A program made the position numbers and the translations under genes. The notes below the pieces were generated by a model. The model made no database searches and was not told the DNA's origin. It worked only from the letters and a program-made list of their open reading frames with translations. From assembly GCA_040905525.1 (NCBI GenBank), contig JBBDRJ010000006.1, forward strand, positions 268,858 to 332,857: DNA of 64,000 bases, written 5' to 3'. Every line of letters begins with the position of its first letter. Position 1 is the first letter of the stretch. The DNA is from Actinomycetota bacterium (lineage in GTDB: Bacteria; Actinomycetota; JAICYB01). Shown in pieces: positions 1 through 20,361 of the stretch.

Positions 1-571
1 GCAGGGCGGCCAGGAACTGCCGCATGTCCAAGAAGTATCGGTAAGCCGCGACGTAGTACAGGACCGCGCCTATCCCGAAGATGACGTAGCTCGGCGCGCG
101 AAGGAACTCACCCGCTGGAGTGGTACCCAGCATCAGGCCAGGCAATGCGGTGAATAACGCGAATGTCGCAGTCTTCCCAACGCGACGCACGCGCGGCTTC
201 CCGAAACCGCGGCGAGCCAGGAACAGGAATGCCACCGACAACGCTGCTTCCCGCAAGAGGACGATGAGGCCCATCCACACGGGGAGGTAGTCCCCCATCA
301 TCAGCGTGACGAGGGCGACCATGGCCAGGATCCGGTCCGATACCGGGTCGAGCGTCGTTCCGAGGTCGGTGACGGTGTTGGTTCGCCGAGCGATCCAGCC
401 GTCGAAATAATCCGACACTCCCATCACACCGAAGAGCCCAACGGCGTAGTTGGTGTGGCCCTGGATGATCAACCACCCGAGTACGGGCGTGAGCGCAAGC
501 CTGCCGAAGCTCAGGAGGTTCGGAACCGTGCGCCACTCGGCCTGTGGGCGGGAGGAAGCCTCGATGTTCAC
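1..571 (-). CDS. CDP-alcohol phosphatidyltransferase family protein (PgsA-like), C-terminus runs off window start
   Basis: Minus-strand frame (not listed in the ORF track because it has no in-window stop) translates VNIEASSRPQAEWRTVPNLLSFGRLALTPVLGWLI...DYFDGWIARRTNTVTDLGTTLDPVSDR. This carries the D-G-x2-A-R-x8-G-x3-D-x3-D signature of CDP-OH phosphatidyltransferases. GTG start at 571..569; an alternative in-frame ATG lies at 676..674. Track ORF 108..536 is a different frame. Confidence 0.7.
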   Translation of the reverse strand, partial: MNIEASSRPQAEWRTVPNLLSFGRLALTPVLGWLIIQGHTNYAVGLFGVMGVSDYFDGWIARRTNTVTDLGTTLDPVSDRILAMVALVTLMMGDYLPVWMGLIVLLREAALSVAFLFLARRGFGKPRVRRVGKTATFALFTALPGLMLGTTPAGEFLRAPSYVIFGIGAVLYYVAAYRYFLDMRQFLAAL

Positions 572-930
572 TGAACCCTCATCGTATCGGTCCCCTTTGG
601 CACCTGCCGTGTGTCGCTCTTCGGTCGAAGGAGAGTAGGGGGTTGAGCCGCCGGCGTGGCTCCACCGGCGGCTCATCCGTCCCATCGGCGATAGCTTGGG
701 TGCCGTGCGACGCGAACGCCTCTCCTTGCCGGCCAAGGCGCTTCTCCGAGCGCTCGAGGTCCTCGCCTTGTTCCCGGCGGCCCTCGCCTGCGGAAGCGAG
801 ACCGTGCCCGGCCGGCGGCCAGCCCTGCGGCCACGGCCACAGCGGCGATCGCTGCTTCACCGGCGGCCTCCAACTGGTCGAGACGTTTTGTCCGAACGCC
901 CGAGCATCGGGAGCTTTGGGGGAAACCGGC

Positions 931-1302: not shown

Positions 1303-1309
1303 GACTTGG

Positions 1310-1353
1310 CGTCGGGCCGCCGGGATTTGAACCCGGGACCTCTTGACCCCCAG
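1310..1353 (-). repeat. attR: 44-bp direct repeat, partial 3' copy of tRNA-Pro (last ~42 nt of tRNA plus 2 nt)
   Basis: cgtcgggccgccgggatttgaacccgggacctcttgacccccag is identical 44/44 to 10014..10057. It contains the T-arm and acceptor 3' half of the tRNA but no 5' half, so it is not a functional tRNA. Confidence 0.9.
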
Positions 1354-1503
1354 CTATCGCGAAGAATGCGGCGTGCTCGCAGGCATAGCCGCATGTCGAT
1401 TCACTCCGAAACTACGCGGAGTCATGCGCTGTGCGCGAAGCCCTCCTCGAAGCCCCCCGCTGTCGCCGATCCGGAGGATCCGCTCAAACGAGGAGAAGGA
1501 ACA

Positions 1504-2016
1504 TTGACCAATCTGGCCAGAGCTACCGACCGCTCAGAACGCGTCCGTGAGGTGTTGGACTACTACTACGGCCGCGGGCTCGATCTCGCCGCGGCAATCG
1601 ACGACGGATACGTCGTCTTCGCCAGCCGCACGCCAACTCGCTTGCGGGACAACGATCGCCCTGAGGTCATCGAAAAGATTCGCGCGAACAGCGTCCAGTG
1701 GTGGGGCGACGAGGAGTGGACTCGCGACCACCTGCTGCGCTGCCACGGATGGTCTCCGGAGCGCGTGGAGGCCTGGTGGACGGGTGAGGATCCAACGTCG
1801 TGGGACCCGGGCAACCCCAACCAGCACGATGAGCATGGCCAGGAGCACTACATCGATGTCGTCGAGGCGGCGCGGGCCATGCCGGTGCCCCACCTCCACG
1901 ATGCCTTCAGCGCCGTCGCAACCGTGCTCGGCGGCGACAACCCACGCTTCCATGCCGTCGGGTCCATCCTCGAGATCCTCATGCACTTGGAAGAAGGCAG
2001 CAGCCCGCTCGTCTAA
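1504..2016 (+). CDS. hypothetical protein (element cargo)
   Basis: TTG start at 1504 preceded by a strong SD, aggagaagga at 1491..1500. 170 aa with no recognisable motif. The track's longer version from 1306 would read through the att repeat and is rejected. Confidence 0.5.
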   Translation: MTNLARATDRSERVREVLDYYYGRGLDLAAAIDDGYVVFASRTPTRLRDNDRPEVIEKIRANSVQWWGDEEWTRDHLLRCHGWSPERVEAWWTGEDPTSWDPGNPNQHDEHGQEHYIDVVEAARAMPVPHLHDAFSAVATVLGGDNPRFHAVGSILEILMHLEEGSSPLV

Positions 2017-2024
2017 GGGCAGAT

Positions 2025-2090
2025 CGGACGCAACGGCATAGGCCCGGCTCCTTACATCTTTCGGGGGCCGGGCCTATGCCGTTGCGTCCG
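2025..2090 (+). terminator. perfect 24-bp inverted repeat hairpin immediately after the stop of CDS 1504..2016
   Basis: cggacgcaacggcataggcccggc ... gccgggcctatgccgttgcgtccg with an ~18-nt loop. There is no U-tract, which is common for actinobacterial terminators. Confidence 0.5.
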
Positions 2091-2163
2091 AAGTTCGAGA
2101 TCGCCGGGCGTCTTCGGCGGACGGCTCGGCTAAAACGACAGTGCTGTAGTTTGGTTCCGGCCG

Positions 2164-2610
2164 ATGACCAAGCTCGCTGAGCTGATGACGGCGATCAACC
2201 TCATCGCCACCGACCTCGAGAATCAACTCGATCCCGCGCTGCCGACCCACGAGCGCGAGCTCTACGCCAGACCGCCGGCCATCCTGCCCGATCACTGCCC
2301 GATGCTCGTGGTGTTCACCGAAAGCTTCGCCTGGGATCTCGTGGCAACACCGAGTCACTACTTCGTGCGTCCCGATGTTCGCGTCGGATGGTTCGTCGCG
2401 GCGGCCAAGGAATCAGAAACCGCGGACGGATTCGAGGAGCTGATGCTTGCGCAAGCGACGATCGCCGACCGCATCGCGGATCGACTCACCACGTACAGCG
2501 AGGGGCTACCCGGTCAGGTCGGGACCTACGCCAAGATCATCGAGACGACGACCGAGCGAAGCGACGGGCCGGTGTTCGGTTTCGTGCATCGCATGGAGCT
2601 CGAGCGTTGA
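2164..2610 (+). CDS. hypothetical protein (element cargo)
   Basis: 148-aa ORF with high-GC third positions and no recognisable motif. Confidence 0.45.
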   Translation: MTKLAELMTAINLIATDLENQLDPALPTHERELYARPPAILPDHCPMLVVFTESFAWDLVATPSHYFVRPDVRVGWFVAAAKESETADGFEELMLAQATIADRIADRLTTYSEGLPGQVGTYAKIIETTTERSDGPVFGFVHRMELER

Positions 2611-2642
2611 CGATCGCCGTTGACCGGCGGCATCGAGGATGG

Positions 2643-3032
2643 ATGAGTTTAGCGGCGTGTGCAGACAAGGATCCGTCGCTCTTCTTTTCGAAGAGCTCGA
2701 GGGCCGCTGCGGCTGCACGAGAGATCTGCGCGTCGTGTCCCGTCCTGACTCCTTGCTTGGTCGATGCGCTCGAGCGCGGAGAGAAGCACGGGATCTGGGG
2801 TGGGATGAGCTTCAAAGAGCGTCAACGGACCCGTTCGAAGCTGCCCCAGGATCTACGCTCCTACATCACGCAACGCGTGCGACAAACCAGCGACCTTTGC
2901 CCGACCTGTCTTTCGCAACCGATCCAGAATCACACGACGGGATGGTGCTCGACTTGCACGGCCGAATATCAACATGCGCAACGAAGCACGTCTACCCAAT
3001 GCCCATCTGACCGCGACGCTGCATCCGGATGA
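2643..3032 (+). CDS. whiB: WhiB-like (Wbl) transcription factor with C-terminal CxxC-x12-CxxC zinc-ribbon extension
   Basis: MSLAACADKDPSLFF...CASCPVLTPCLVDAL...HGIWGGMSFKERQR shows the four Wbl cysteines and the G[VI]WGG turn followed by a basic tail. A ~65-aa tail then carries CPTC-x12-CSTC. SD gagga precedes the ATG. The 3' end overlaps the convergent tape-measure gene by 41 nt. Confidence 0.8.
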   Translation: MSLAACADKDPSLFFSKSSRAAAAAREICASCPVLTPCLVDALERGEKHGIWGGMSFKERQRTRSKLPQDLRSYITQRVRQTSDLCPTCLSQPIQNHTTGWCSTCTAEYQHAQRSTSTQCPSDRDAASG

Positions 3033-5001
3033 GCTCGTCGCGGATCGTCCGCGCCAACTGTTGATCTCTTCCGCCACCGCCACCGCCGCCGCTCACGTTT
3101 ACCGTGTTGTAGTTGTTCACGACCATCGAAGAACGCGAACCTCGCGGGCTGCTTCCGCCGGCGGCGAGCCGAATAGCTAGACCTCGATTTCCGCCGGAAA
3201 GCCCGCCGACGGGGCCTCCGTCGTGCATGAGCGCGATGCGCTTGACTAGTTCGCCCTGCCGCGTGTTGCGGAGCCCCTTGAGATTGGCGAAGAAGGATGG
3301 GGTGAAGAACCCGGTAGTCCTGGGGTCGTTCACATATTCGCCGGGGATCAGCTTCGCATCGACCTCACGGCGGCCCACATTGCCGCCGCCGTGGAAGGAC
3401 GCGGCCGGCGACACGAGCCCTCCATCGTGGAAGAGCTTCACGATGCGCTGGAAAATCGTTACCGTCTTGTTCGCGATACTCCCGATCCAGCCCTTGACGC
3501 GATCGACGATGCTCTTGGAGTTGCCGGGGTCGACCTCGACGCGGGGACGAGCGGTATGTCCGGTGAGGCCGTTCAGGTCCCCGTGCACGCCGTTAATCTC
3601 ACTTCGTGCCGGCGCTCCTGTCGCGTCCAGCGTCGACATCGTGTGGACGGCCCCCACGTTGTCCAGGGCCGACCCCGTCGACGAAATCGTGCTCTTGGCG
3701 GGCGCGTCATTGGCGTCGAGCTTGGCCGTCGCCGTCGTTTCAGCGAATGTGTTTAGCACGGTCCCGGCTGCAGGAACCTTCTCGTGGATGTCGGAGTCGT
3801 CGAGCGAGATTTTCGGCGCGATGGGGATGGAGTTGATGTCGCGCATCTGCTTGTCGACGATGCCGAGCTTGTCCAGGAGAATCGAGACGCCCGCGACCGC
3901 CGCGGCGGTGCCGATGACCAACGTGAAGGGACTGGCCAACAGGCCCTTTATGAGGCCGAGCTTGGTTGCCACCCCGCCGAGCTTTCCGGCTCCCTGAGCC
4001 GTGCCTGCCGCGGCCCCTACGCTGGCGATGTCCTTCGCGGCCTTGGCCATCTTCCAAGTAGAGACGGCCGTTGACAGCCTTGATACGACCGACAGGACCG
4101 GGCCGAGGACGATCGCGATCGCTCCGGCATGCACGACGACGTCCTGCATGCCGGGTGAGAGCTTCTCGAAGGCACCCGCGAGCGCCTCTGCGCCTCCCGC
4201 GAGCTTCTCGTACATCTTCACCCTGATGGGATCTATGGCGGCACCGAGCTTCTCTTCTGCTTCACCCATCCGATTCGTGGCCTGAGCGACTTTACCGGCA
4301 CCCTGGGCGTAAGCCTCGGCCGACCCGCCGAACTGGTCCTTGAGCTCGCCGAGCATGATGTTCTGGGCACCGAGCAGATCGCCTGATTCGACGAGGGCCT
4401 TGATTGCCTTCTTCTGATCGTCGCTGAATTGAACGCCGGCCCTGCCCATCGCCGCGATGCCCTTGATGGGATCGTTCAGCGCTTTACCGATCATGATCGT
4501 CGCGCTCTCGAGGTCGGCTCCCTCGGAGACTCCCTTGTTCATGGCCGTGGCCATGTCGAGGATGGCCGTCTGAGCCTGGTCGAAAATTTTGTTGCCCTTT
4601 CCAACTTCATTGCGGACGTTCTTGAACGTGAGCAACAAGTTGGAGCTCTGCGTGACGGCTTCGTCGTCGAAGGCTGTGAGCTTCTGCATCGACGACGCGA
4701 GCTTGTCCACGTCGCCGGCCGTGACGTTCGCAGCGCCACCCGTCGACTTGATGACCGCGCGCGTCTGACCGATCGCGGCCTGCGATTCCCGAAATGCCTT
4801 GGCCGACTTACTAGCCAGCAGCAGCAGCGGAGCGGTTACTCCGACCGTGAGCGCGTCGCCGACCTTCTTCGCGCCCTGGCCGAACTTCTTAAGGCCGGCG
4901 CCGACTTGGTCGTTGCCTTTGCCGATCTTCTTCTGCTCGCGCAGGACCTGTGATGCATCCGCGGTGTAGCGGACGTTGAGGTCCCTGTTGCCGCCGCCCA
5001 T
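2992..5001 (-). CDS. phage tail tape measure protein (TP901/TMP core-like N-terminal region)
   Basis: 669 aa. The Ala/Gly/Lys-rich helical N-terminal ~250 aa (…KKFGQGAKKVGDAL…MQKLTAFDDEAVTQSSNLLLTFKN…GKALNDPIKGIAAMGRAGVQFSDDQKKAIKALVESGD…) is typical of TMP core. Gly-rich C-terminus. Confidence 0.8.
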   Translation of the reverse strand: MGGGNRDLNVRYTADASQVLREQKKIGKGNDQVGAGLKKFGQGAKKVGDALTVGVTAPLLLLASKSAKAFRESQAAIGQTRAVIKSTGGAANVTAGDVDKLASSMQKLTAFDDEAVTQSSNLLLTFKNVRNEVGKGNKIFDQAQTAILDMATAMNKGVSEGADLESATIMIGKALNDPIKGIAAMGRAGVQFSDDQKKAIKALVESGDLLGAQNIMLGELKDQFGGSAEAYAQGAGKVAQATNRMGEAEEKLGAAIDPIRVKMYEKLAGGAEALAGAFEKLSPGMQDVVVHAGAIAIVLGPVLSVVSRLSTAVSTWKMAKAAKDIASVGAAAGTAQGAGKLGGVATKLGLIKGLLASPFTLVIGTAAAVAGVSILLDKLGIVDKQMRDINSIPIAPKISLDDSDIHEKVPAAGTVLNTFAETTATAKLDANDAPAKSTISSTGSALDNVGAVHTMSTLDATGAPARSEINGVHGDLNGLTGHTARPRVEVDPGNSKSIVDRVKGWIGSIANKTVTIFQRIVKLFHDGGLVSPAASFHGGGNVGRREVDAKLIPGEYVNDPRTTGFFTPSFFANLKGLRNTRQGELVKRIALMHDGGPVGGLSGGNRGLAIRLAAGGSSPRGSRSSMVVNNYNTVNVSGGGGGGGRDQQLARTIRDELIRMQRRGQMGIG

Positions 5002-5107
5002 CTACCTAAACCATCCGGGGAGTGGGAGCCGGGCAGACGGAGTCGCTCGCCTGCGCTATGTCCCCGGCCCCCACGCCATTGTGAGAAGAGCTCCCCGGAG
5101 ATCGCAT

Positions 5108-6487
5108 CTACGCTGGGACAATGCCGTCCAGGATCTGGAAGGCAGTCGGGCGCATGACTTGTATGTCGCCTCGGAAGTGCCCGAGGAACCCGACCTCGCC
5201 AGTGTCGGCGAAGTGCTCGCGCAAGACCATCACGTCGAGCTCCAGGCGCACGCCGAGCACGAGGTAGCGCCACTCGCCGACATACGCCTTCGACTCATCG
5301 GTGCCGACGCCACCATCGACCGGGATCTTCTGCGTGTCGAGCATCGGAAGGTTGTCCTCGAGGTAGGCAGGGGGTCGCAGGTACTGTCCGGTGCCGGCGC
5401 CTTCGCGCAAGCTGCCCAGCGCCGCCGCATCGCGCACGGCGCCGATGAGTCGTCCCGGCCGGAAGTTGCGCCCTCTGACCGTGCTAACGGCGGTGATGAG
5501 CTTGTCGTAATCGATCTCGCCCACCGTCGCCGTCTCGGGGACACCGACCGTGGCGTCGAGTCCCGTCGGCTGGTCGTTGGTTCCATCACCCAGCAGCGCG
5601 GCGCGATCCCACTCGGCGGCGAACGCGGCGGCGAACGCGGTGGTGAGCAGGTCGTCGACAGCGATGCCTGAATCCTGCATCGCTTCCCACGAAACCCGCG
5701 CGATGACGGCCAGCGACTTCGGATCGAAGGTGAGACTTGAAAGCGTTGGTTCGGACTCACCGATCGCGCCATGCTCGGCCCTCCACGCGACGACGGGATC
5801 GTCGACGAACGCCGCAGCTTTCACTTGACCTTCCCGCAGCGGGATGACCGCAGCGCCGGCTTCCACGACTCGCGAGAACGCTCGGGCCGCGTCGAAGATC
5901 TCGGGCAAGACCCCCGTCGGAAAGAGTCCGCCGGTGCCGGCCGTTCCCGTCCCGATCTGGCGAAGCTCCGCCACCGTTGCGTGATCCTCCATGGCCATGG
6001 CTCGCAGATAGCGGCCAAAGCTCCCGGCCGGTGCGTCCGTGACACCCGGAAGCGAGCGGAAGCTCGTTCCGGCCGGCAGTGGGCGTCCGAAGTCCGCTCG
6101 CGCGTGCTCAGGAGTTCTCCCGTCGGCCGGGCGTTCCTGGCCGCGTGTATCCGAGAGGTCGGCGGCTTCGGCATTGCGTCGGCGCTGCGCTGTTTCGGCG
6201 CGGTCGCCGGCGGCCTCCTGCCGGGCGACTTCTTCGGCCATCCGCTCGAGCCGGCGGAGCTCGAGGATCTCATTGTCGAGCTGATCGAGCGCTCGCTGCT
6301 CGGACGCTAGAGGCGCCACGTCACGACTGCCGTCGGGCCTTTCGTTGGATCGATTCGCGATGGTGGATCGGACAGCCGCCGACATTCGCCGGCGCTCTTC
6401 TAGGGCCTCGCTACACATCTGCACAGCCTGGTAAGCGGATCCGCTCTCGTACTCCGTGCGGATACGCGACAGGAGTTCTGTGAACAT
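5108..6487 (-). CDS. phage major capsid protein, HK97 fold, with N-terminal coiled-coil (delta/scaffold-like) domain
   Basis: Coiled-coil N-terminus followed by …GTGGLFPTGVLPEIFD…TFDPKSLAVIARVSWEAMQDSGI…, typical of the Phage_capsid (HK97) family. Start chosen at ATG 6487 because of SD gggagg 5 nt upstream; alternative in-frame starts at 6508 and 6538. Confidence 0.8.
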   Translation of the reverse strand: MFTELLSRIRTEYESGSAYQAVQMCSEALEERRRMSAAVRSTIANRSNERPDGSRDVAPLASEQRALDQLDNEILELRRLERMAEEVARQEAAGDRAETAQRRRNAEAADLSDTRGQERPADGRTPEHARADFGRPLPAGTSFRSLPGVTDAPAGSFGRYLRAMAMEDHATVAELRQIGTGTAGTGGLFPTGVLPEIFDAARAFSRVVEAGAAVIPLREGQVKAAAFVDDPVVAWRAEHGAIGESEPTLSSLTFDPKSLAVIARVSWEAMQDSGIAVDDLLTTAFAAAFAAEWDRAALLGDGTNDQPTGLDATVGVPETATVGEIDYDKLITAVSTVRGRNFRPGRLIGAVRDAAALGSLREGAGTGQYLRPPAYLEDNLPMLDTQKIPVDGGVGTDESKAYVGEWRYLVLGVRLELDVMVLREHFADTGEVGFLGHFRGDIQVMRPTAFQILDGIVPA

Positions 6488-6561
6488 CTCAGCCTCCCTG
6501 ATCGACATCGGCACCCGGCCCACATGGGCCGGGGACATCGCCGAGGTCGCTGGGAGGTCGG

Positions 6562-6620
6562 GTGCGGAGCACTCGCCGGCCTCTCGTGGCCTCCGGCGGC
6601 CGTCGCGGTGCGGAGCACTC
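6562..6620. repeat. direct repeat gtgcggagcactc (2 copies, 46-bp period) upstream of capsid gene
   Basis: Copies at 6562..6574 and 6608..6620 (about 18 nt with 1 mismatch when extended). Lies in the 182-nt gap between the orf103 stop and the capsid start. Confidence 0.5.
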
Positions 6621-6669
6621 TCGCGACGACCAACTTCGACGCAAAGCATACGACGTGGCGACGACGCCA

Positions 6670-6981
6670 TCAAGGCTCCCCCGTGAGACGACGAAGGCCG
6701 GCGTCGGGATCGAGCGCGTCGCGAATGACCAGAGCATCAACACGAAAGAGCGGCGTGCCGCTCACTGAGTACTCCCAGTACGAGACGCCGTCGATGTGAC
6801 AGTCACGCCAAATCACCGGCTCGCCCCGCTCGATGGCGTCGATAACACGATCGATGACCTCGGGATCCTGCCGCGAGGTCCAATCGCGCAGATACAGCTT
6901 GACCAACGTGCAGATCACGTCGGAACCGGGGACTTGTGCGTCGTCTCCGTTCGAATTTCCGTCCGAATATTCGTCGTTCAT
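6670..6981 (-). CDS. hypothetical protein (element cargo)
   Basis: ATG at 6981 with SD ggagg 4 nt upstream. 103 aa. The track version starts at 7032. Confidence 0.5.
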   Translation of the reverse strand: MNDEYSDGNSNGDDAQVPGSDVICTLVKLYLRDWTSRQDPEVIDRVIDAIERGEPVIWRDCHIDGVSYWEYSVSGTPLFRVDALVIRDALDPDAGLRRLTGEP

Positions 6982-7094
6982 CCGGCCTCCTTGGGCGGCC
7001 GCGCATTTCGTCGGGACCGACGGAGCGTCCAATCCCTCAGAGGCGAGTGGAGCACACTCTCCCGCCTAAAAAAACGAGCGAGGCATGGAAGACA

Positions 7095-7155
7095 GGCAGC
7101 GAGGTGGGCAGGACCGGCGGCCGGCATGGCGCCGTTCACTGCCCACCTCGCTGCC
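7095..7155. promoter_or_regulatory. perfect 17-bp inverted repeat (ggcagcgaggtgggcag / ctgcccacctcgctgcc), 27-nt spacer, followed on the minus strand by a T7 tract
   Basis: Lies between the orf116 stop (7163) and the orf103 start. The A7 run at 7063..7069 reads as a T-tract on the minus strand, about 25 nt past the hairpin. Confidence 0.45.
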
Positions 7156-7162
7156 TCACGGC

Positions 7163-7513
7163 TCAAGGACGCTTTCCGACGCGTTCCAGCATCTTGCTCA
7201 CGGATCTGTCGTGTGCCGCCGTGACGCGCCGCACGTCCTCGTGGTGCTCGACGTCGGTCACCCAGCCCGTCGCGTGTGGTGCGATCCGTCCCTCCTCGTG
7301 GGCGCCCCCCGCGTCGGCGTGGGCCGACGAGACCGCTCGCCTCCGGAGGCCGTCGAAGTGCTCGCGCGCCCACTGCCCGTACAGCGTGCGTGCCTCGCCC
7401 TCGTCCTCGGCGAGCTTTTGCCTTCCCCACCAATGCCCGTGCTCGTCTTCGACGAGCAACTGCACGCGAAAAAGCCGCACGGCTCCACGACGAAGCTCAC
7501 CGAGCCGCGGCAC
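7163..7513 (-). CDS. hypothetical protein (element cargo)
   Basis: GTG start with SD aaggga. Overlaps the upstream HTH gene's stop by 17 nt. Confidence 0.5.
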   Translation of the reverse strand: MPRLGELRRGAVRLFRVQLLVEDEHGHWWGRQKLAEDEGEARTLYGQWAREHFDGLRRRAVSSAHADAGGAHEEGRIAPHATGWVTDVEHHEDVRRVTAAHDRSVSKMLERVGKRP

Positions 7514-8228
7514 GGCGGACTCCCTTCGCTCGCCGGCCGTCGCGGCCGATCTCCGTCGAGATCCACGTGAGGAACCCGCGTCGCCGATTCTTGTGCCGTC
7601 GCGACGGTGGCCTCGACTCGAGCCACGTCAGGTACTTGCGGAGCTCGACGTCGTAGAAGACCTGCGTCCCGCGCGTGAGCTCGTCGATCCGTCGCCAGAA
7701 GTCGACGTCGTGCAGATCATCCGGCGCATCTAGCTCGACGAGCAGTGCCCTGACGTCTTCGAGCTCGCCCCACGAGCCGTTGCGCGCGCGGGCGGCTTCT
7801 GCCGCATGCGCGTCCTTCGGTTCTAAGGACGGTTCAGTAGGACGGTTCCTTGCAACCCCGTTGGTACAATCGACGGCCCGAATTGGCACAATCGACGGCC
7901 CACTTGGCACATCCATGCCAGGCAGGGGTGTACCGATTCCTGACACATCCCTCATGCCGAGGATGGCGTAGCGATTCGTCCGCCTCCCTGGCTTGCGGCC
8001 CCATCCCATCCCCGGTTCGATGGCGAGCTCGCCGGCCGCGACGAGACGTTTCAAGCTGGCCTGCACCGTCGCCGGCGAGCAACGCGACTCCCGCGCGATC
8101 TGGCGGATCGAAGGGAACGACGACGAGCCGTCCGCGTGCGCGTGGTTGGCGATCGCCAGCAGCACGAGCCGCGCGTTGCCCTTGGCCTCCGAATGCTCGA
8201 GCACCCAGGCCAAAGCCTGGACGCTCAC
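7497..8228 (-). CDS. winged helix-turn-helix DNA-binding protein (phage/plasmid Rep-N or regulator-like)
   Basis: N-terminus MSVQALAWVLEHSEAKGNARLVLLAIANHAHADGSSSFPSIRQIARESRCSPATVQASLKRLVAAGEL matches the wHTH seen in actinophage/plasmid replication-initiator and regulator N-domains. GTG start overlaps the upstream stop as GTGA. Confidence 0.65.
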   Translation of the reverse strand: MSVQALAWVLEHSEAKGNARLVLLAIANHAHADGSSSFPSIRQIARESRCSPATVQASLKRLVAAGELAIEPGMGWGRKPGRRTNRYAILGMRDVSGIGTPLPGMDVPSGPSIVPIRAVDCTNGVARNRPTEPSLEPKDAHAAEAARARNGSWGELEDVRALLVELDAPDDLHDVDFWRRIDELTRGTQVFYDVELRKYLTWLESRPPSRRHKNRRRGFLTWISTEIGRDGRRAKGVRRAAAR

Positions 8229-8491
8229 GCCGGCTCCGGCTGTTGGTCTCGCCGCGATCGTGAGCGCGACCGCTTGAACGCCAAGCCGGACATGTAGGCC
8301 CGCATCGCGGCCTGGGCGCGTCGCTTCCGCTCCCGTTCGGGGAGTCGGCCGTCTGGATCTACCTCACGCTCGAACCGGGCGAGGAACGCTTCCCGGCCGG
8401 CCTTGGTCGTCTCGCGTGAGTCGTGCTTCGAGTGCAGCGCGTAGGCGCCCATGCGCGCACGCATAGTGCGTTGTGCTGGTGTGAGAGACAT
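8225..8491 (-). CDS. small basic hypothetical protein (88 aa), possible excisionase/regulator
   Basis: ATG start. Arg/Lys-rich. Stop overlaps the HTH start. A hairpin (cgggct…agcccg, ~8505..8535) lies upstream. Confidence 0.45.
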   Translation of the reverse strand: MSLTPAQRTMRARMGAYALHSKHDSRETTKAGREAFLARFEREVDPDGRLPERERKRRAQAAMRAYMSGLAFKRSRSRSRRDQQPEPA

Positions 8492-8562
8492 GCCAAACCC
8501 TTCGGGCGCGGGCTTCCGAGAGCCCGAAAGGTCGGTCTACGAACGACGTGCTAAATCCTAAC

Positions 8563-8997
8563 TCAACCCGAGGACAGAACCTTGGACAGCACCACGCGCT
8601 CGGCGGTCATCCACCGCGGCTGACCGTCATCGAGCACGTCGGTGGCCGTCGCATGGAGCTGATCGATGGTGGAGACGATTTGCCGCTGGCATGAAACACA
8701 GCGTGGCACGAAGCCGACTCGAAACCGCCACGTCCTGTGCTTTCGCTCTCGGAACGTGTGAAGGGTCACGTTGCCGTTGGGGTCGGATCGATCGACGACC
8801 GTCACTTCACTTGCCCACTGCACACGGGCGTAGTCGGCCTGTTGCCAAAGCACGTCGCCCTCCCCCTCCAACCGCATGACGGCGCCCATCAGCCGCGTCT
8901 GATCCCTTCGATGGTTGTGACTCAAACAGTGGGCGTAGACGGTTTCGAAGAAGGGCTGGACCACGATCTCCCCTGGCCACTGGAAGTGGAGCGCCAT
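8563..8997 (-). CDS. hypothetical protein (144 aa) translationally coupled to integrase
   Basis: ATG at 8997..8995 overlaps the integrase TGA by 1 nt. Contains HCLSHNH and a CVSC motif. Only this 3' part of track ORF 8563..9723 is accepted; the rest is out of frame inside int. Confidence 0.5.
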   Translation of the reverse strand: MALHFQWPGEIVVQPFFETVYAHCLSHNHRRDQTRLMGAVMRLEGEGDVLWQQADYARVQWASEVTVVDRSDPNGNVTLHTFRERKHRTWRFRVGFVPRCVSCQRQIVSTIDQLHATATDVLDDGQPRWMTAERVVLSKVLSSG

Positions 8998-9932
8998 CAC
9001 AGCCGGTCCCCCAGCGAGAGCCGCCGGTGTGCGGCGATCGCGCGCTCGCCGGCCGTGGAGCTCGCGTAGCGCCGCACCATCTCGCGGGAGCGCCACCCAG
9101 TGATGCGCATGAGATCCCCTTCCTCGCCGCCGGCGGCCAACCAGTTGTGCGCGAAGGTGTGGCGGAGCTGGTGCGGAAAGACGTGACCGATGCCGGCCTG
9201 CTCGCCGCGGCGCTTCACCATCTGGCGCACGCCCGAGGTTGTCATCTGTCCGCGCGCTCCGAGGAACAGCCAGGGCGAGGCCGCGTGATTGTGCTCGCGC
9301 CGCACGCGCAGGTAACGATCGACCGCGCGTGTCGTCCTGGCGCCGATGGGTAGAGCTCGCGCACGGCCGCCCTTGCCCGTCACGAAGACGAGTCCGGCGT
9401 CGAGGTCCAGATCGCTGTCGTCGTCGTCTGGTATATGGCGCACCCCGACCACCTCGGCCAGTCGCGCTCCGGTGTCGATGAACGTGCGCAGGACGGCCGT
9501 GTCGCGGCGATCGACAAAGCCTCGGCCCCCGCACGTGGCCAGCAGAGCGGCCAGAGCCGCGTCTGAGAGCACGGGGACGGGTTGCTCGGGTACGTGAGGC
9601 GGCGTCATGCGTTCCATGGGCGAGCGCGCGACGTCGCCTTCGTCGGCCGCCCATTTCCAGAACTGCTGGAGGGCCTTGAAGCGGTTGAGGGCCGAGGCCG
9701 GCTTCTGCCGAGTCAGCATCCATTCGAAGAAGCTCTCGAGGTGCTCGCGCGTGATCGAGCCCACGCGCCGCGGCATGCCCACCTCGGCCAGGAACCCGTC
9801 GAGCAGCGTCAGGGCCGAGGTGTAGGAGTAGACGGTGTTCTCGGAGCGGTTGGCGGCGCGCAGGTGGCGACGGAAGGGCCCGGCGAGCTCGGTCAGAGCG
9901 TCGGCTTGCGTCCTCGAAATCGTCCCAGTCAT
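8997..9932 (-). CDS. int: tyrosine-type site-specific integrase
   Basis: C-terminal [12 protein letters not shown]…[17 protein letters not shown] (R..H..R..Y catalytic pattern). Adjacent to tRNA-Pro. Confidence 0.9.
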
Positions 9933-10013
9933 GTGCTATTTATACGGAGTGCTAGTGACGAGGACGGGGGCCGGAATGGCAAAGGCGCAGGACAGCGCCC
10001 TTTTCGTCGGGCC

Positions 10014-10057
10014 GCCGGGATTTGAACCCGGGACCTCTTGACCCCCAGTCAAGCGCG
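10014..10057 (-). repeat. attL: 44-bp direct repeat (within/abutting tRNA-Pro 3' end)
   Basis: Identical to 1310..1353. Confidence 0.9.
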
Positions 10058-10089
10058 CTAACCAAGCTGCGCTACGGCCCGTAGGACAG
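10016..10089 (-). tRNA. tRNA-Pro (anticodon GGG)
   Basis: Reverse complement GGGCCGTAGCGCAGCTTGGTTAGCGCGCTTGACTGGGGGTCAAGAGGTCCCGGGTTCAAATCCCGGCGGCCCGA folds as a cloverleaf. Anticodon loop is CU-GGG-GG. CCA is not encoded. Confidence 0.9.
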
Positions 10090-10099
10090 ATGCTACCGG

Positions 10100-10891
10100 C
10101 TAAGCCGGGACGGCCTTGAACCGGAGCGTGATGCGCTCAGCCGTGCGGAACTCACGGCGGAAAGTCGGCTCGTCGTCCCACCGTGTGACCGGCGTCTGCA
10201 CTCCGGCGATATCGAAGACCGTCCCTTCCTCGCGGAACGGATACGGATCGAGAAGAAGATCCCCGTCCCCCGTCCCGCGAGCCACGATCTCGACGTCGCC
10301 TTCGACCGACGCGATCGGCGGCATCTTGCGTTCCGCATTCTCGTCCAGTTGCTGCATGCATACGAGAAGCGACAGCCGGTCCCACACCTGAAGCTGACGC
10401 CAGCCCTCGTCGGCTTCCACTTGCGTGCCGTGCCCGCCGATCCGTCCGAGAAGCTGCTCTTGGCGCTTCCGCTCCCCTTCCACATACGCGGTAGCCAGTT
10501 CGAGGTCCGTGTTCTTCAGGTTCTGGATGCGTGGATCCATACCCGGGAAGAACGGCCGCGTGTAAAGGCGCTCGCCGTGCAGTGATGCGATGAGTCCGGC
10601 GTAGTCGTCCTCGCTTTCCACGAGGTCGATCCCCCGCTTGTACAGAGCCACGTGCTGCTCCACCGGGATGTGTATGAAATCCACCGGGCCCCCGTTGGGA
10701 GCCAGGCGCGGCGCGAGCTCCCATTCGAACCATCCGTCGTCGTGGCGAGCTGCGGCCACGACCGTCGATTCGCGGCGCACGGGGACCGGGATCCGATCAT
10801 TACCCCAGACGTTCGCGAAAGCACCGGACAGGAGTGCATGGTCCGTTTGCCGGAATAGCAGCAGTGCGCCGTCGCGCTCTTGGAGGATCAT
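10100..10891 (-). CDS. conserved hypothetical protein (DUF3891-like)
   Basis: 263 aa, compact ORF. Tentative family recall from the N-terminus MILQERDGALLLFRQTDHALLSG. Confidence 0.5.
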   Translation of the reverse strand: MILQERDGALLLFRQTDHALLSGAFANVWGNDRIPVPVRRESTVVAAARHDDGWFEWELAPRLAPNGGPVDFIHIPVEQHVALYKRGIDLVESEDDYAGLIASLHGERLYTRPFFPGMDPRIQNLKNTDLELATAYVEGERKRQEQLLGRIGGHGTQVEADEGWRQLQVWDRLSLLVCMQQLDENAERKMPPIASVEGDVEIVARGTGDGDLLLDPYPFREEGTVFDIAGVQTPVTRWDDEPTFRREFRTAERITLRFKAVPA

Positions 10892-12201
10892 CCGGCGCGT
10901 TTTCTCCGCTGGCCCGTTTTAGTCACGAAGCGGATCGGCGTTCCCTCGAACCCGAAGCGGCGCCGAAGTCCGCGATCCAGATACCGCAGCCACTGCTCCG
11001 GGATCCGATTAGCCCCGAAAAGAACCACGGTTGGTGGCGACGTCTCGGCCTGCACCGCGTACTTGACGCGCTCTCCGCGACCGGTGGAAGGGATCGGCGT
11101 GCGGGCCTGCAAGTCGTCCACGACGGCGTTGAGGATTGGCGTCGGCACTCGGGTCGAGCGCGCCTCGAGCACCGGAGGCAGGGCCTCGAACAGTCGCGGC
11201 ACCCCCTTGCCCGTCAGCGCGGACAACTCTAGGAAAGGAGCCCAATGCAGGTGTGGCAGGCGGCGGCGAAGCTCCTGCTTATGTCTGGTCAGCTCGTCGC
11301 CGCTCAGCACGTCGACCTTGTTCAGGACGACGACGGCCGACCGCCCGAGCTCCGCTATATCGTCGGCGATCCGCATGTCCTGCCGGGAGATCCCCTCCGT
11401 CGCGTCGATAACGAGCACGGCTACGTCGCATCGCTCGAGCGCACGCTTGGTTCGAACGGTACCGAAGAACTCCGTTGGCTCGTCGATCCGGGCCGATCGG
11501 CGGAGGCCCGCCGTGTCGACGAACCGATACGTTCGCCCCTCGACCTCGACGAGTGTGTCGACGGCGTCGCGGGTGGTTCCGGGTTCATCGTGAACGATGC
11601 TGCGTTCGGCCCCCACCGCGCGGTTGAACAGGGTGGACTTTCCGACATTTGGACGGCCGACTATCGCGATCCGGGGCTCGCCCGATTCCTCTTCTCGCCC
11701 TTGCGGGAACTCATCGGTCAACACATCGAGGAGGTCGCCCACACTGCGTCCGTGCAGCGCGGACACAACGACGGGATCACCCATCCCAAGCGAGTAGAGC
11801 TCGGCGCTCTCACTCTCGCGCTTGGGCGTATCGGCTTTGTTGGCGACAAGCACCACGGGACGGTCCAGCTTCCGGATTACGTCGGCGACGGATTCGTCGT
11901 CCGGTGTAACGCCGGCCGTGACGTCGACGACGAAGGCGACGACGTCGGCCTCGGCGGCCGCCGCGCGCGCGGTATCGGCGACCTTCCCGGCCAGCTCGCC
12001 TTCCGGGTCGGTTTCCAAGCCTCCGGTATCCACGACCAGGAACGGCCGACCACGCCATTCGGCCTGGTAGAGGATGCGGTCGCGGGTGACACCCGGACGT
12101 TCTTCGACGATCGCCTCTCGTCGTCCGATAAGGCGATTCACGAGGGTCGACTTTCCGACGTTCGGTCTGCCGACGACGGCGACTACTGGAAGGTCGGTCA
12201 C
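10888..12201 (-). CDS. der: ribosome biogenesis GTPase Der (EngA), two GTPase domains + KH-like
   Basis: GRPNVGKST appears twice, DTGG appears twice, NKAD/NKVD present. Confidence 0.95.
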   Translation of the reverse strand: MTDLPVVAVVGRPNVGKSTLVNRLIGRREAIVEERPGVTRDRILYQAEWRGRPFLVVDTGGLETDPEGELAGKVADTARAAAAEADVVAFVVDVTAGVTPDDESVADVIRKLDRPVVLVANKADTPKRESESAELYSLGMGDPVVVSALHGRSVGDLLDVLTDEFPQGREEESGEPRIAIVGRPNVGKSTLFNRAVGAERSIVHDEPGTTRDAVDTLVEVEGRTYRFVDTAGLRRSARIDEPTEFFGTVRTKRALERCDVAVLVIDATEGISRQDMRIADDIAELGRSAVVVLNKVDVLSGDELTRHKQELRRRLPHLHWAPFLELSALTGKGVPRLFEALPPVLEARSTRVPTPILNAVVDDLQARTPIPSTGRGERVKYAVQAETSPPTVVLFGANRIPEQWLRYLDRGLRRRFGFEGTPIRFVTKTGQRRKRAG

Positions 12202-13472
12202 CGAGGCTCCAGTGCGTTCATGACGGCGGCGAAACGCCGCTGAGCCTCCACCGTAGCCTCCCGGATGCGCGAGCGAGGGACGATCCCATCCCGCGCGCGG
12301 TCGCCTAGTCGGAACGGCTCCCCCACCGAGGCTCGGATCGTCACGAGCTTGGGCATCTTCCGTCCGGGCGGGAACACGCCCTCGGTTCCACTTATGGCCA
12401 CCGGCAGGATCGGCGCGCCCGACTTCAATGCGATGTACGCGAAGCCTTCCTCGAGCACGTCGAACCGTGCATCGGGCGTCCGCGTGCCTTCTGGGAAGAT
12501 ACCTAGCAGGTCACCGGCATCCAGAACGGCAAGTGACTGCAGGAGCGCGCTTCGATCCGGACGGCCCCGCCGGACCGGAAACGTGCCCGTGTGTCGAATG
12601 AACCAGGCAGCAAACGAGTTCTTGAACAGCTCTTCCTTGGCCATGAAGCGCACGTGACGCTTGGTTACCGCCGCCGCCACAGGGATATCGATCAGCGATC
12701 GGTGATTGGGAGCCAGGATGGCGCCACCACGCTTCGGGATGTTTTCCGAGCCGATCACCTCGAAATGGAATGCAACCTTCAATAGAGCCTTGATCAGGTC
12801 CCGCACGCCGACGTACAGCGCCGGAGCCCGACGCGGCCGCATCAGCTCGAGGATCTTCTCCGCCACGGACTCGGCATCGAGGTCGGATGTGTCGACAATA
12901 ACCGCGTCCCTTGCCGGTCTCATCGGACCGACGGGGCGGGACGCGTCCCTCGAGTCCCGCTCGTGGATCTCGACGGACTCGTTGCCCGGAGTCCCGTGCT
13001 CGGCCGTCCGACGCTGTGCGCGAACATCGGGCGAAGCGTCCAGGAAGAGCTTGATATCCGCGTCCGGCCAAACGACGGTGCCGATGTCCCGGCCTTCGAC
13101 GACGGCGCCTTCTGGCGGAACTAGGCTTCGTTGGAACGCAACGAGAACAGAACGAACCGCGGGGTGTGCGGAGACGATGGACGTGGCCTCACTTACCTCA
13201 GGCGTGCGGATCTCCGGGCCCACGGGTTGGCCGTCGAACTGCAGCACACGTCCGTCGACGAGCCGGCTGCGCTGCATGGTCTCCTTCGCCAGCTCAGCGA
13301 GGGCTGCAGCCTCGCTCGTCGGCACTCCGCTCTGCATCGCCCTCAAGGCGACGAGCCGGTACGTCGCCCCCGTATCGACGTAGGCGAGCGACAGCTTGTC
13401 GGCCAACATCTTCGCCACGGTGGACTTTCCGGAGCCGGCCGGACCATCGATCGCGACGATCGTGCGTTTCAT
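12198..13472 (-). CDS. cmk: cytidylate kinase fused to 1-acyl-sn-glycerol-3-phosphate acyltransferase (Cmk-PlsC fusion)
   Basis: N-terminus IAIDGPAGSGKST (Cmk P-loop). C-terminal half carries NHRSLIDIP (HxxxxD) and FPEGTR acyltransferase motifs. Confidence 0.85.
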   Translation of the reverse strand: MKRTIVAIDGPAGSGKSTVAKMLADKLSLAYVDTGATYRLVALRAMQSGVPTSEAAALAELAKETMQRSRLVDGRVLQFDGQPVGPEIRTPEVSEATSIVSAHPAVRSVLVAFQRSLVPPEGAVVEGRDIGTVVWPDADIKLFLDASPDVRAQRRTAEHGTPGNESVEIHERDSRDASRPVGPMRPARDAVIVDTSDLDAESVAEKILELMRPRRAPALYVGVRDLIKALLKVAFHFEVIGSENIPKRGGAILAPNHRSLIDIPVAAAVTKRHVRFMAKEELFKNSFAAWFIRHTGTFPVRRGRPDRSALLQSLAVLDAGDLLGIFPEGTRTPDARFDVLEEGFAYIALKSGAPILPVAISGTEGVFPPGRKMPKLVTIRASVGEPFRLGDRARDGIVPRSRIREATVEAQRRFAAVMNALEPR

Positions 13473-14773
13473 ACGACCTCCACGTCGGCGCCCAGCTCAG
13501 CAAGGACTCCTTCGAATCCCGGCCACGACACCGCTGCGCACTCCCAGCCCGTGATGCGCGTCTCTCCGTGCGCGACCAAGCCCGCAACGGCCAGGGCCAT
13601 GGCGATTCGGTGATCGCCGGCCGCATCCACTTCAGCACCGTGCAACGGCCGGCCGCCGCGCACCACGAATCCGTCGGGAAGCTCGTGGATCTCCGCACCC
13701 AGCTTGCGAAGGCCGGTCACGAGCGAGTCGATCCTGTCCGACTCCTTCACGCGCAGCTCACCGGCACCCGTAACCGCAGTCTCGCCCTTGGCCTGGCTCG
13801 CAAGCACACCCAGCAGTGGCAATTCGTCGAGGAAACCGGCGACATCGTCGGCCCTCACATCGGCGGCAACAAGATCGGAACGCTCGGCGTTGATGCCTCC
13901 GAACGGCTCTCCCAGCTCAAGGCCCGCTTCCTCCAGCCGCACAGTGGCGCCCATGCGTTGCATCTGAGATGCGAAGCCCGTCCGTGTGGGGTTCAGGCCG
14001 ACGTGGGACATGGATACCTCGCCGCACAAAGCAGCCGCGCCGAGGAGGAACGCCGCCGAGGACACGTCGCCCGGGATCGTGATCTCGAACCTAGGTGGGT
14101 CGAATCCCTCGACCTCGACCTGATGAGCGCCACCTTCTACGCGACGTTGCTTGATCGGCGCGCCCAGCGCCTCGAGCAGCCGCTCCGTGTGGTCGCGAGT
14201 GAGGCTGGGCTCGGTGACGCGGGTTCGGCCGCCGGCGCCAAGGCCAGCGAACAGCGCGCAGGACTTTACTTGGGCGCTCGCGACCTCCGTGTCTATCTCC
14301 GTGCCGACAAGGGCTCCACCAACGATCCTCAAGGGTGGGTAACGCCCACCTTCGGCATCGACGTGAGCGCCGAGCGCTCGAAGAGGCCGGGCTATGCGAT
14401 CCATCGGTCTGCGCCGAAGAGAGGAGTCGCCGTCCAGCACCGACGTGAAGTCGTAGTGCGCGGCAAAACCGGCGAGCATCCGCATGGTGGTTCCCGAGTT
14501 TCCACAATCGAGCGCTCCATCCGGCTGGAGCCACGACCTTCTTCCCTTCCCGTGGACGCCGGCGTCCCCGTTCGTCGTCTCGATCTCGACCCCGTAGGAC
14601 CGAAGACACGCGATGGTGGACGCTACGTCGGCTCCCGAAGCGATGTTTCGGACCATGCTGGTTCCGGTGGCCGCCGCACCGATCATCAGCGCCCGGTGCG
14701 AGATCGACTTGTCTCCGGGCACGCGCGCATTTCCGGACATCCGGCATGGTCCGCGGACGATGAGTGTGCTCAT
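13469..14773 (-). CDS. aroA: 3-phosphoshikimate 1-carboxyvinyltransferase (EPSP synthase)
   Basis: Start at MSTLIV (ATG 14773); the track has an N-terminal over-extension. Contains …GNSGTTMR… and shows EPSP synthase family similarity. Confidence 0.85.
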   Translation of the reverse strand: MSTLIVRGPCRMSGNARVPGDKSISHRALMIGAAATGTSMVRNIASGADVASTIACLRSYGVEIETTNGDAGVHGKGRRSWLQPDGALDCGNSGTTMRMLAGFAAHYDFTSVLDGDSSLRRRPMDRIARPLRALGAHVDAEGGRYPPLRIVGGALVGTEIDTEVASAQVKSCALFAGLGAGGRTRVTEPSLTRDHTERLLEALGAPIKQRRVEGGAHQVEVEGFDPPRFEITIPGDVSSAAFLLGAAALCGEVSMSHVGLNPTRTGFASQMQRMGATVRLEEAGLELGEPFGGINAERSDLVAADVRADDVAGFLDELPLLGVLASQAKGETAVTGAGELRVKESDRIDSLVTGLRKLGAEIHELPDGFVVRGGRPLHGAEVDAAGDHRIAMALAVAGLVAHGETRITGWECAAVSWPGFEGVLAELGADVEVV

Positions 14774-15861: not shown

Positions 15862-15864
15862 GAT

Positions 15865-20276: not shown

Positions 20277-20361
20277 GGGAGTAAGTCGAGCGTACCGTCG
20301 GTTCGCCTCGCGGGCACGGATTCCCGTTGCGCGATCGTGCCCGCAGGGGTAGCCTCGCTCC

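Follow-up and report, generated by a model that had tools for sequence, protein, structure and literature searches.

A candidate phage satellite with capsid and tape-measure genes integrated at tRNA-Pro(GGG) in an Actinomycetota bacterium

A 64,000-nucleotide stretch of an Actinomycetota bacterium (GCA_040905525.1, locus tags WD646_; 550,743-bp contig JBBDRJ010000006.1, positions 268,858 to 332,857; hereafter the window) contains housekeeping genes (cmk, der, aroA, pyrG, scpB, a chromosomal XerD-like gene, arginine biosynthesis genes and others) and, beside a tRNA-Pro gene, an element that encodes a tyrosine integrase (Int), a phage-like replication initiator (Rep), a major capsid protein (MCP) and a tape-measure-like protein (TMP). 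The question raised by this locus is what kind of mobile element has its own integration and replication genes and these two structural genes only. The favoured answer, to which we give a probability of roughly 0.6, is an integrated, helper-dependent phage satellite. This reading is based on the integrase and replication module, the restriction of virion genes to MCP and TMP, the empty sites in related genomes, the intact open reading frames (ORFs) and the recurrence of the layout in other islands.

The element was originally predicted to lie between perfect 44-bp direct repeats, and both a repeat search and direct string comparison find the two copies (Table 1) identical at 44 of 44 positions, with identity stopping at both edges and zero extra matching bases. 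No further fragment of the repeat of 16 nt or longer occurs elsewhere in the 64-kb window, where a given 44-mer is expected to recur by chance ~1e-22 times. The right-hand copy corresponds to the last 43 nt of tRNA-Pro(GGG) plus 1 nt, from the anticodon loop (CTGGGGG...) to the 3′ end, and this is the single tRNA in the window (ARAGORN; Rfam RF00005 places it at 10007-10081 with 66.5 bits). The tRNA and the element end had first been put at 10016..10089 and 10057, coordinates that are 8-10 nt off, the right-hand repeat ending at 10048. No tRNA is called at the left copy, either by ARAGORN or by Rfam at E≤0.1, so this copy is a 3′ fragment only; as had been supposed, it has no 5′ half and is not a second tRNA. 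An intact tRNA at one end with a repeat of its 3′ fragment at the other is a mark of tRNA-integrated genomic islands, as is a catalytic recombinase beside the tRNA, and the predicted tyrosine integrase is indeed present with its gene 73 bp from the tRNA 3′ end. Its catalytic set is complete (R157, K187, H254, R257, W280, Y289), and it has a SAM-like core-binding domain and no arm-binding domain. The arrangement shows site-specific insertion into the 3′ half of tRNA-Pro(GGG), in which the tRNA was regenerated and the displaced 3′ fragment left 8.7 kb away.

The same site is unoccupied in relatives. With the flanking Der GTPase as query and one genome per species, three related metagenome-assembled genomes are returned (L008, L009 and L010; Der identity 86%, 74% and 87%, respectively), and in 3 of 3 the der-DUF3891-tRNA-Pro(GGG) order is present and the element absent. 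In blastn comparisons they are colinear with window 15993..10005 up to the tRNA 3′ end and then jump to the pgsA-like gene (window 589..4), and there is no second copy of the tRNA 3′ end at any of the three loci. In L008 a 115-aa ORF for a Pro-rich membrane protein, a homolog of window ORF 931-1302 (E 1.8e-10 by blastp; E 4e-15 for its counterpart in L010), has its stop codon 33 bp from the tRNA-Pro 3′ end, with nothing between. This is exactly the junction by which the original prediction proposed that an empty site would be recognised, and together with the full catalytic set of the integrase and the lack of a tRNA at the left copy it supports the reading of the repeats as attL and attR. Since relatives carry empty sites, the element is an insertion and not ancestral sequence. 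It was acquired in this lineage, not necessarily recently, since the relatives with empty sites are different species; that it is recent or still functional, as first suggested, may nevertheless be so.

Variation among these genomes extends to the tRNA and its flank. The T-arm of tRNA-Pro(GGG) (window 10014-10030; L008:12166-12182; L009:12161-12177) has fully compensatory differences between close relatives, with stems of CCCGG...CCGGG in the window and L010 and GGGAG...CTCCC in L008 and L009; the two repeat copies in the window agree in this stem, which prevents the crossover point from being placed. The stretch from tRNA-Pro to the pgsA-like gene (window 544-1309; L008:12194-14079; L010:12194-14697; L009:12188-12252) varies in the relatives, being 65 bp, 1.9 kb or 2.5 kb long, and holds the poorly conserved Pro-rich membrane ORF, to which L010 adds a 213-aa esterase-like ORF. 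This flank may be a general hot spot of gene gain and loss.

The 8,651 bp between the repeats contain 11 ORFs (ten had been counted originally) and are 89% coding. Eight genes are transcribed leftwards from the tRNA, in the order Int, orf144, orf88, Rep, orf116, orf103, MCP and TMP, and three (orf170, orf148 and WhiB) are transcribed rightwards and converge on the TMP gene, the 3′ ends of whiB and the TMP gene overlapping by 41 nt. Start and stop codons overlap by 1-4 nt at int/orf144, orf88/rep and orf148/whiB and by 17 nt at rep/orf116, in keeping with the earlier description of the ORFs as intact and tightly packed. The GC content is 65.3%, compared with 65.1% in the rest of the window, and ORF GC3 (GC at third codon positions) ranges from 0.65 to 0.86, although at 65% GC gene picking by GC3 gives no ORF discrimination. 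Only the MCP and TMP ORFs reach 350 aa, and together they account for more than 40% of the element. The coding density, the host-like GC content and a full-length MCP with all clade-invariant residues argue that this is not debris.

No large terminase subunit (TerL), portal, prohead protease, connector, tail tube, chaperone or lysis protein is found among the element ORFs with Pfam, PHROGs and NCBIfam, nor is there an FtsK-type Tra, a transposase or a known defence protein among them, and PADLOC yields nothing better than E 0.028. The content is thus unlike that of a prophage, an actinomycete integrative and conjugative element (AICE) or an insertion sequence, as the original prediction had it, and the element, with 8.65 kb, its own Int and lambda O-like Rep, and MCP and TMP as the only structural genes, has the make-up of a generic phage satellite. 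To judge from its parts it is a mosaic of phage-derived modules.

The MCP has the HK97 fold. Its AlphaFold2 model (pLDDT 73) has a long helical, delta-domain-like N-terminus (aa 2-113), and the top Foldseek matches of the model are HK97 gp5 proheads, the list including the capsids of the satellites SaPI1 and EcCI2; sequence searches of the PDB with MCP and TMP are empty. The protein is equal in length to its relatives P0007 and P0008. The start codon differs between gene calls, the Logan caller reading through the upstream spacer to give 520 aa and GenBank giving 459 aa; the shorter call is favoured by a strong ribosome-binding site at 6487 and by the 459-aa length of P0007 and P0008. A search of 5.8 billion clusters gave only 23 relatives, with 40% identity at best, and those with readable context are mostly in small islands, for example a primase (PriCT_2/DUF5906 or Prim-Pol/D5_N) and an MCP beside tRNA-Asn. 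One such island in Thioalkalivibrio sulfidiphilus (L005:4851-13139, GCA_048594305.1) is 8.2 kb long, lies between perfect 59-bp copies of the tRNA-Leu(CAA) 3′ end and contains int, HTH_17, AAA_25, an MCP 38% identical to that of the window and a Terminase_4 small terminase, and represents a different minimal capsid-bearing, satellite-like layout. An IMG/VR contig (L026) likewise has the int ... MCP-Terminase_4 order, at its end.

The TMP gene follows the MCP gene after a gap of 106 bp. The N-terminal ~310 aa of the protein belong to the tape-measure family and the C-terminal ~290 aa are unique, with two hydrophobic segments at aa 285-314 and 348-382. There are 1545 relatives, some with PF06791 (TMP_2); metagenomic TMPs are 47-51% identical, and tblastn matches include annotated TMPs of Gordonia, Microbacterium and Dinoroseobacter phages. 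The nearest relatives are all in complete siphophage tail modules, in which 8-11 genes (4-5 kb) separate MCP and TMP.

A closely spaced MCP-TMP pair with the same companions recurs elsewhere. A metagenome scan with a 6-sequence MCP alignment identified two islands, L052 and L057 (Table 1), which share with the window element a Rep with a helix-turn-helix (HTH), an MCP, an adjacent TMP (starting 89 bp after the MCP gene in L057), a tyrosine integrase beside a tRNA and a size of ~9 kb. Their MCPs are 41% identical to each other and 36-37% identical to that of the window, and their integrases are 42% identical to each other (E 5e-85). They differ from the window element in that the integrases are of another subfamily (358-379 aa), have no BLAST match to the window's and are placed after TMP instead of at the head of the operon, in that their att cores are shorter and lie at the very 3′ terminus of the tRNA, and in that there is no WhiB pair. 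The retention of Rep, MCP, adjacent TMP and Int by three independent small tRNA islands argues that the gene set is selected and makes a residue of chance deletions unlikely. The TMPs of the window, L052 and L057 belong to three different families, as would be expected if the TMP must fit the tail of the local helper.

Table 1. Coordinates of the element's genes, sites and repeats, and of two similarly organised islands (window coordinates, except for L052 and L057)
Feature	Coordinates	Strand	Evidence and remarks
attR: displaced tRNA-Pro 3′ fragment, 44-nt core without 5′ half	1310..1353	-	exact repeat of 10005-10048
orf170, orphan, TTG start, GAGGAGAAGG ribosome-binding site	1504..2016	+	no Pfam/PHROGs/NCBIfam/PADLOC match; GC3 0.82
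Hairpin, 28-bp stem, between orf170 and orf148	2024..2091		inverted repeat 96% complementary; DNA fold -39.6 kcal/mol, z -11
orf148	2164..2610	+	pairs with downstream WhiB gene; only homolog P0145 (53% identity)
WhiB-like transcription factor, 141 aa	2607..3032	+	PF02467 E 4.7e-22, phrog_472; C-x22-C-x2-C-x5-C motif, GIWGG
Tape-measure-like protein, 669 aa	2992..5001	-	phrog_27166 TMP E 6.9e-30
HK97-fold MCP, 459 aa	5108..6487	-	PF05065 E 2.7e-32, TIGR01554 E 2.2e-36, phrog_10 E 6.4e-42
Two exact copies of 14-nt GGTGCGGAGCACTC, 46 nt apart	6561..6620		in 183-bp spacer upstream of MCP gene
orf103, orphan, strong AAGGAGG ribosome-binding site	6670..6981	-	also gene-called in Logan assemblies
Strong hairpin, ~20-bp stem, between orf116 and orf103	7096..7154		DNA fold -36.2 kcal/mol, z -9.1
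orf116, orphan	7163..7513	-	no family match; GC3 0.80
Replication-initiator-like protein (Rep), 243 aa, N-terminal HTH_36, lambda-O-like	7497..8228	-	PF13730 E 6.4e-12
22-bp tandem repeat, 2.4 copies, within rep gene	7861..7911		TRF score 81
orf88, basic orphan	8225..8491	-	no family match
orf144, orphan	8563..8997	-	library and representative searches
Tyrosine integrase, 311 aa, XerC/D/XerA-like	8997..9932	-	PF00589 E 1.6e-22, PF02899, PF13495, phrog_1 E 7.7e-42; PDB XerD, XerA
attL core: 3′ 43 nt of intact tRNA plus 1 nt	10005..10048	-	repeat search
Intact tRNA-Pro(GGG), integration target	10006..10081	-	ARAGORN, Rfam; equal gene and synteny in L008, L009, L010
Predicted attP, der-sense orientation			CGCATTCTTCGCGATAG-CTGGGGGTCAAGAGGTCCCGGGTTCAAATCCCGGCGGCCCGACG-AAAAGGGCGCTGTCCTGCGCC (CTGGGGGTCAAGAGGTCCCGGGTTCAAATCCCGGCGGCCCGACG = 44-nt core)
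Predicted attB, der-sense orientation			GCGCGCTTGA-44-nt core CTGGGGGTCAAGAGGTCCCGGGTTCAAATCCCGGCGGCCCGACG-CCAAGTCTCACTCGCAGGTGCC
L052 island, 9.7 kb (VFQR01000313.1, 80.5-kb contig, GC 0.67)	5615-15303		16-bp repeat 5615-5630 / 15288-15303, tRNA-Ser(GGA) 3′ end
L052 genes	Rep 5897-6706; MCP 7560-8912		HTH_36 Rep; TMP 580 aa (phrog_10574, E 1e-124); tyrosine integrase 20 bp from tRNA
L057 island, 9.1 kb (TARA scaffold, GC 0.67)	2491-11639		19-bp repeat 2491-2509 / 11621-11639, tRNA-Arg(CCT) 3′ end
L057 genes	Rep 2662-3507; MCP 4546-5868		O-like Rep (weak); TMP 999 aa (PF20155 TMP_3, E 1e-45); tyrosine integrase 41 bp from tRNA

The replication module is of phage type. Rep matches replication initiation (O-like) families in PHROGs (phrog_1032, E 8e-17; phrog_8540, E 2e-14), and its N-terminus has matches in 124 phage records compared with 3 plasmid records; aa 1-111 are 42% identical to an HTH_36 protein of a 27-kb phage contig (L047), and in IMG/VR there is one match only, also N-terminal. 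The 22-bp motif repeated within the rep gene is unique in the window (0.08 chance matches expected), and its period is not a multiple of three, so the repeat is a DNA-level feature; it is a candidate iteron origin that resembles lambda O in its arrangement.

Upstream of the integrase gene there is a -10-like TATAAAT (window 9938-9944, minus strand) 5 nt from the ATG and no Shine-Dalgarno sequence, which suggests that the integrase transcript may be leaderless; leaderless transcripts are common in Actinomycetota. A second tyrosine recombinase is encoded in the window near scpB (~19347-20438, minus strand; PF00589 E 6.8e-44 among the housekeeping ORFs), its position inferred from synteny and not from an individual match. 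Its conserved counterpart, at an equal relative position in L008, L009 and L010, is 27-29% identical to the element integrase, and the window gene is most likely the chromosomal XerD/XerC.

The rightwards-transcribed block includes a gene pair shared with a phage contig. The orf148-WhiB pair, with its 4-nt overlap, recurs in a 41-kb phage-like contig (L044:211-899), in which WhiB is 46% identical and the pair lies upstream of methylase-HNH-portal-protease-MCP genes; this type of phage is a candidate helper or donor. For orf148, a 2-sequence alignment gave no usable AlphaFold2 model (pLDDT 44). The six orphan ORFs have no match in Pfam, PHROGs, NCBIfam or PADLOC at relaxed thresholds, and orf144, orf170 and orf103 have no relatives in IMG/VR. 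Besides repeat-protein noise, the sole match of orf144 among 1.84 billion representatives is P0146 (96 aa, 99% identity, query aa 49-144), the extent of which would fit an orf144 start at GTG 8853.

Both hairpins are unusually long, perfect or near-perfect and situated at operon boundaries, and have only spurious miRNA-like matches in Rfam. The one between orf170 and orf148 is a probable terminator, and the one between orf116 and orf103 divides the int-rep block from the orf103-MCP-TMP block. A sigma-70 promoter scan found none, and a terminator scan was at background. Together with the two 14-nt copies in the spacer before the MCP gene, the second hairpin suggests separate control of orf103-MCP-TMP as a late unit.

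If the element is a satellite, its cycle would begin when a helper siphophage infects or is induced and the element excises through Int, after which Rep would replicate it from the candidate iteron origin and orf103-MCP-TMP would be expressed as a separate late unit downstream of the hairpin. The MCP would build capsids sized for ~9 kb with the portal, protease, terminase and connectors of the helper; the delta domain of the MCP implies dependence on a prohead protease, which is absent from the element. The TMP would take the place of the helper TMP in helper-made tails, for which PLE11 and the EPIPs (both discussed below) are precedents, and the helper would also supply the tail tube, tip and lysis functions. 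The phage-shared orf148-WhiB pair probably ties expression to, or interferes with, helper regulation.

A number of observations weigh against this reading. Small terminase, cos or pac site, tail-assembly chaperone and head-tail adaptor are not recognised in the element, and neither are a repressor or antirepressor sensor and an excisionase; 6 of the 11 ORFs are orphans. No co-resident or helper prophage is present in the 64-kb window and no helper is identified. The Logan contigs that carry the element (L003, L004) match the window at 100% identity and break off within the att repeat or ahead of it, as k=31 would predict, which leaves them uninformative on excision. In 5 of 17 IMG/VR loci the MCP relatives are in ordinary TerL-portal-protease-MCP modules, so the clade is mixed and the notion that all of it is borne by satellites does not hold. 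No close relative of the whole element is present in the searched databases, the best MCP match being 40% identical. A neighbour-joining tree of MCPs does not support a single subclade for the window, L052 and L057, and the window Int, Rep and TMP have no or marginal BLAST similarity to their counterparts in L052, L057 or the EPIPs, so the common layout could be convergent or mosaic.

The element is not a complete temperate prophage, the large terminase, portal, tail tube and lysis genes being absent, but it could be a defective one, a small temperate siphophage at tRNA-Pro from which internal deletions have left Int, Rep, MCP, TMP and the regulatory pair, with no spread in particles. We consider this unlikely, though it is the foremost alternative. 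The integrase, replication, MCP, TMP and regulatory genes follow the order in which they stand on a temperate siphophage map, homologs of both Rep and TMP occur together in the 27-kb phage contig L047, the orf148-WhiB pair is common to a 41-kb phage contig, no packaging function is recognised, and small remnants with an int gene are found very frequently at tRNAs. This history would require no fewer than three separate deletions, yet the ORFs are clean, there is no pseudogene debris, the region is 89% coding and the att cores are perfect; moreover, the adjacency of MCP and TMP together with Rep and Int recurs in L052, L057 and the particle-forming EPIPs, which points to selection and not to accident.

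An improbable explanation is a phage-derived defence or interference island, mobile by Int and unpackaged, in which the main role of the MCP and TMP homologs would be to poison, as decoys, the assembly of capsids or tails of infecting phages. WhiB-type regulators occur in actinophage exclusion systems, and TerS (the small terminase) and a chaperone are absent from the element. Satellites and islands often carry assembly interference, as in the case of Rta, which targets the TMP of phage ICP1 (PMC12987554). Against this stand the PADLOC result, a replication initiator and candidate origin that purely chromosomal defence genes would not need, and a full-length MCP with scaffold domain and a full-length TMP that look made for assembly; the idea also overlaps with the satellite model, as satellites interfere with their helpers too. 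An AICE-like or integrative-plasmid element moving by conjugation or mobilisation with phage genes as cargo would fit the tRNA-Pro 3′-end integration known from pSAM2, the ~9-kb size and the int and rep backbone, and is very improbable given that FtsK/SpoIIIE-type Tra, Spd, Nudix/Pif and RepSA/Prim-Pol families are undetected, that the Rep N-terminus is so predominantly matched by phage records, and that MCP and TMP take up so much of the element.

The preferred reading therefore remains that of a phage satellite. At the sequence level the element is a singleton, and L052 and L057 alongside it hint at a wider family. It is possible, though we lean against it, that the three represent an undescribed ~9-kb satellite family of high-GC bacteria with tyrosine-integrase insertion at tRNAs and a morphogenetic load limited to two proteins that fix virion dimensions, a capsid protein with built-in scaffold and a TMP exchanged to suit the local helper. 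In such a family the head and tail of the hijacked phage would be re-sized by two structural genes with no recognisable terminase subunit, and the EPIPs would be a larger, serine-integrase branch of one strategy. Tape-measure-carrying satellites have only recently been reported (PLE11, Nature 2026; EPIPs, preprint Dec 2025), and the window element with the two islands suggests that the strategy of combining MCP and TMP may be wider and older, may exist in smaller elements and may extend, as an integrated form that targets tRNAs, to uncultured high-GC bacteria of soil and sea. Should this be confirmed, the element would be a very small satellite design with two structural genes, and it would allow one to study what determines capsid size and tail length in virions whose ruler proteins are encoded by a different genome from the other parts; the MCP-TMP gene pair could be a marker for satellites missed by detectors built on PICI, cf-PICI, P4 and PLE (phage-inducible chromosomal islands, their capsid-forming kind, phage P4 and PICI-like elements). 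If it is merely a prophage remnant, it is an ordinary tRNA island.

The known systems differ in how much of this design they share. Marine VEIMEs are without capsid genes (PMC9618062). The Streptomyces satellites MiniFlayer and MulchRoom are 15-17 kb long (PMC10690885) and are not among the tblastn matches of the window MCP and TMP in the phage collection. The PICIs and SaPIs are characterised by int, a Stl/AlpA-type regulator, a primase-helicase (pri-rep) and TerS or cpm, without a capsid gene; in the window element only int is present, there is no HTH_17/AlpA, primase or Terminase family, and there is an MCP. P4-like satellites have a Prim-Pol/D5-type alpha primase and sid/psu/delta genes, and no Prim-Pol, D5_N or Psu family is found in the element ORFs. 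The cf-PICIs are similar in using their own HK97-fold capsid protein for small capsids, and the EcCI2 capsid is among the structural matches of the MCP model, but their head and packaging module is complete (MCP, protease, portal, adaptor/connector, TerS, HNH), and of it the MCP alone is detected here. The window MCP can also be likened to the Ccm-type capsid homolog of SaPIbov5, a satellite-borne HK97-fold capsid protein giving small capsids. In its mode of insertion the element resembles other tRNA-integrating actinobacterial elements such as pSAM2, a ~10-kb AICE of Streptomyces inserted by a tyrosine integrase into the segment of a tRNA-Pro from the anticodon loop to the 3′ end; it differs from pSAM2 and other AICEs in having no FtsK/SpoIIIE-type Tra or Spd and no RepSA, RepAM or Prim-Pol, its Rep being of the phage O-like HTH_36 type, and in having capsid and tape-measure genes.

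The PLEs of Vibrio cholerae use an external scaffold, TcaP. PLE11 is like the window element in encoding a TMP and is a mechanistic precedent, whereas PLEs are unlike it in having unrelated sequence and host, in encoding a tail-assembly chaperone and BhuB and no MCP, in using a large serine recombinase and in parasitising a lytic myovirus. PLE11 has been shown experimentally to put its own TMP, chaperone and BhuB into ICP1-derived tails that are ~10 nm shorter (PMC12987554), and putative tmp genes have been noted in PLE-like elements and cf-PICIs (PMC12987554, Extended Data Fig. 10).

The closest resemblance is to the EPIPs, 11-kb satellites of the Mycolicibacterium aichiense prophage HerbertWM that encode TerS, adaptor, stopper, a serine integrase, an HTH protein, scaffold, MCP and TMP and form particles with smaller capsids and longer, variable tails; apart from PLE11, satellite TMPs were otherwise unreported according to their authors (PMC12822802, preprint Dec 2025). 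The right half of EPIP Alyssa1 (OR387110) contains an HTH protein (5434-6183, 249 aa; HTH_36 E 6.5e-5), four small ORFs, a PF05065 MCP (7458-8282), a 72-bp gap, a 651-aa TMP (8355-10310) and a convergent ORF, and the window element has the same core of an HTH protein, small ORFs, an MCP and an adjacent TMP. Both thus have an HTH_36-type protein of ~245 aa, small ORFs, a PF05065 MCP, a gap of at most 110 bp, a TMP of ~650 aa and a convergent ORF, and both are actinobacterial, ~9-11 kb long and without portal, TerL, tail tube and lysis genes. The Rep, MCP and TMP of the window show no pairwise similarity to those of Alyssa1 (BLASTP E>2 for Rep and TMP; none at E≤0.1 for MCP), and the EPIP MCP is matched only weakly by the L052 and L057 MCPs (1e-6 to 6e-8). 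EPIPs also differ in their serine integrase, the window's being a tyrosine recombinase, in having a 274-aa MCP without delta domain, and in encoding scaffold, TerS, head-to-tail adaptor and stopper; for the last three the element has no family at E≤1 and no phmmer or tblastn match to Alyssa1, although its orphans could hide divergent versions. EPIPs have been isolated as free particles, whose small capsids and altered tail lengths are what the satellite reading predicts for the window element; of the latter, only the copy integrated at a tRNA, with its tyrosine integrase, is known. The element is best filed as an EPIP-like satellite with MCP and TMP genes that lacks recognisable TerS and connector genes, is smaller, and uses a tyrosine integrase to target a tRNA.

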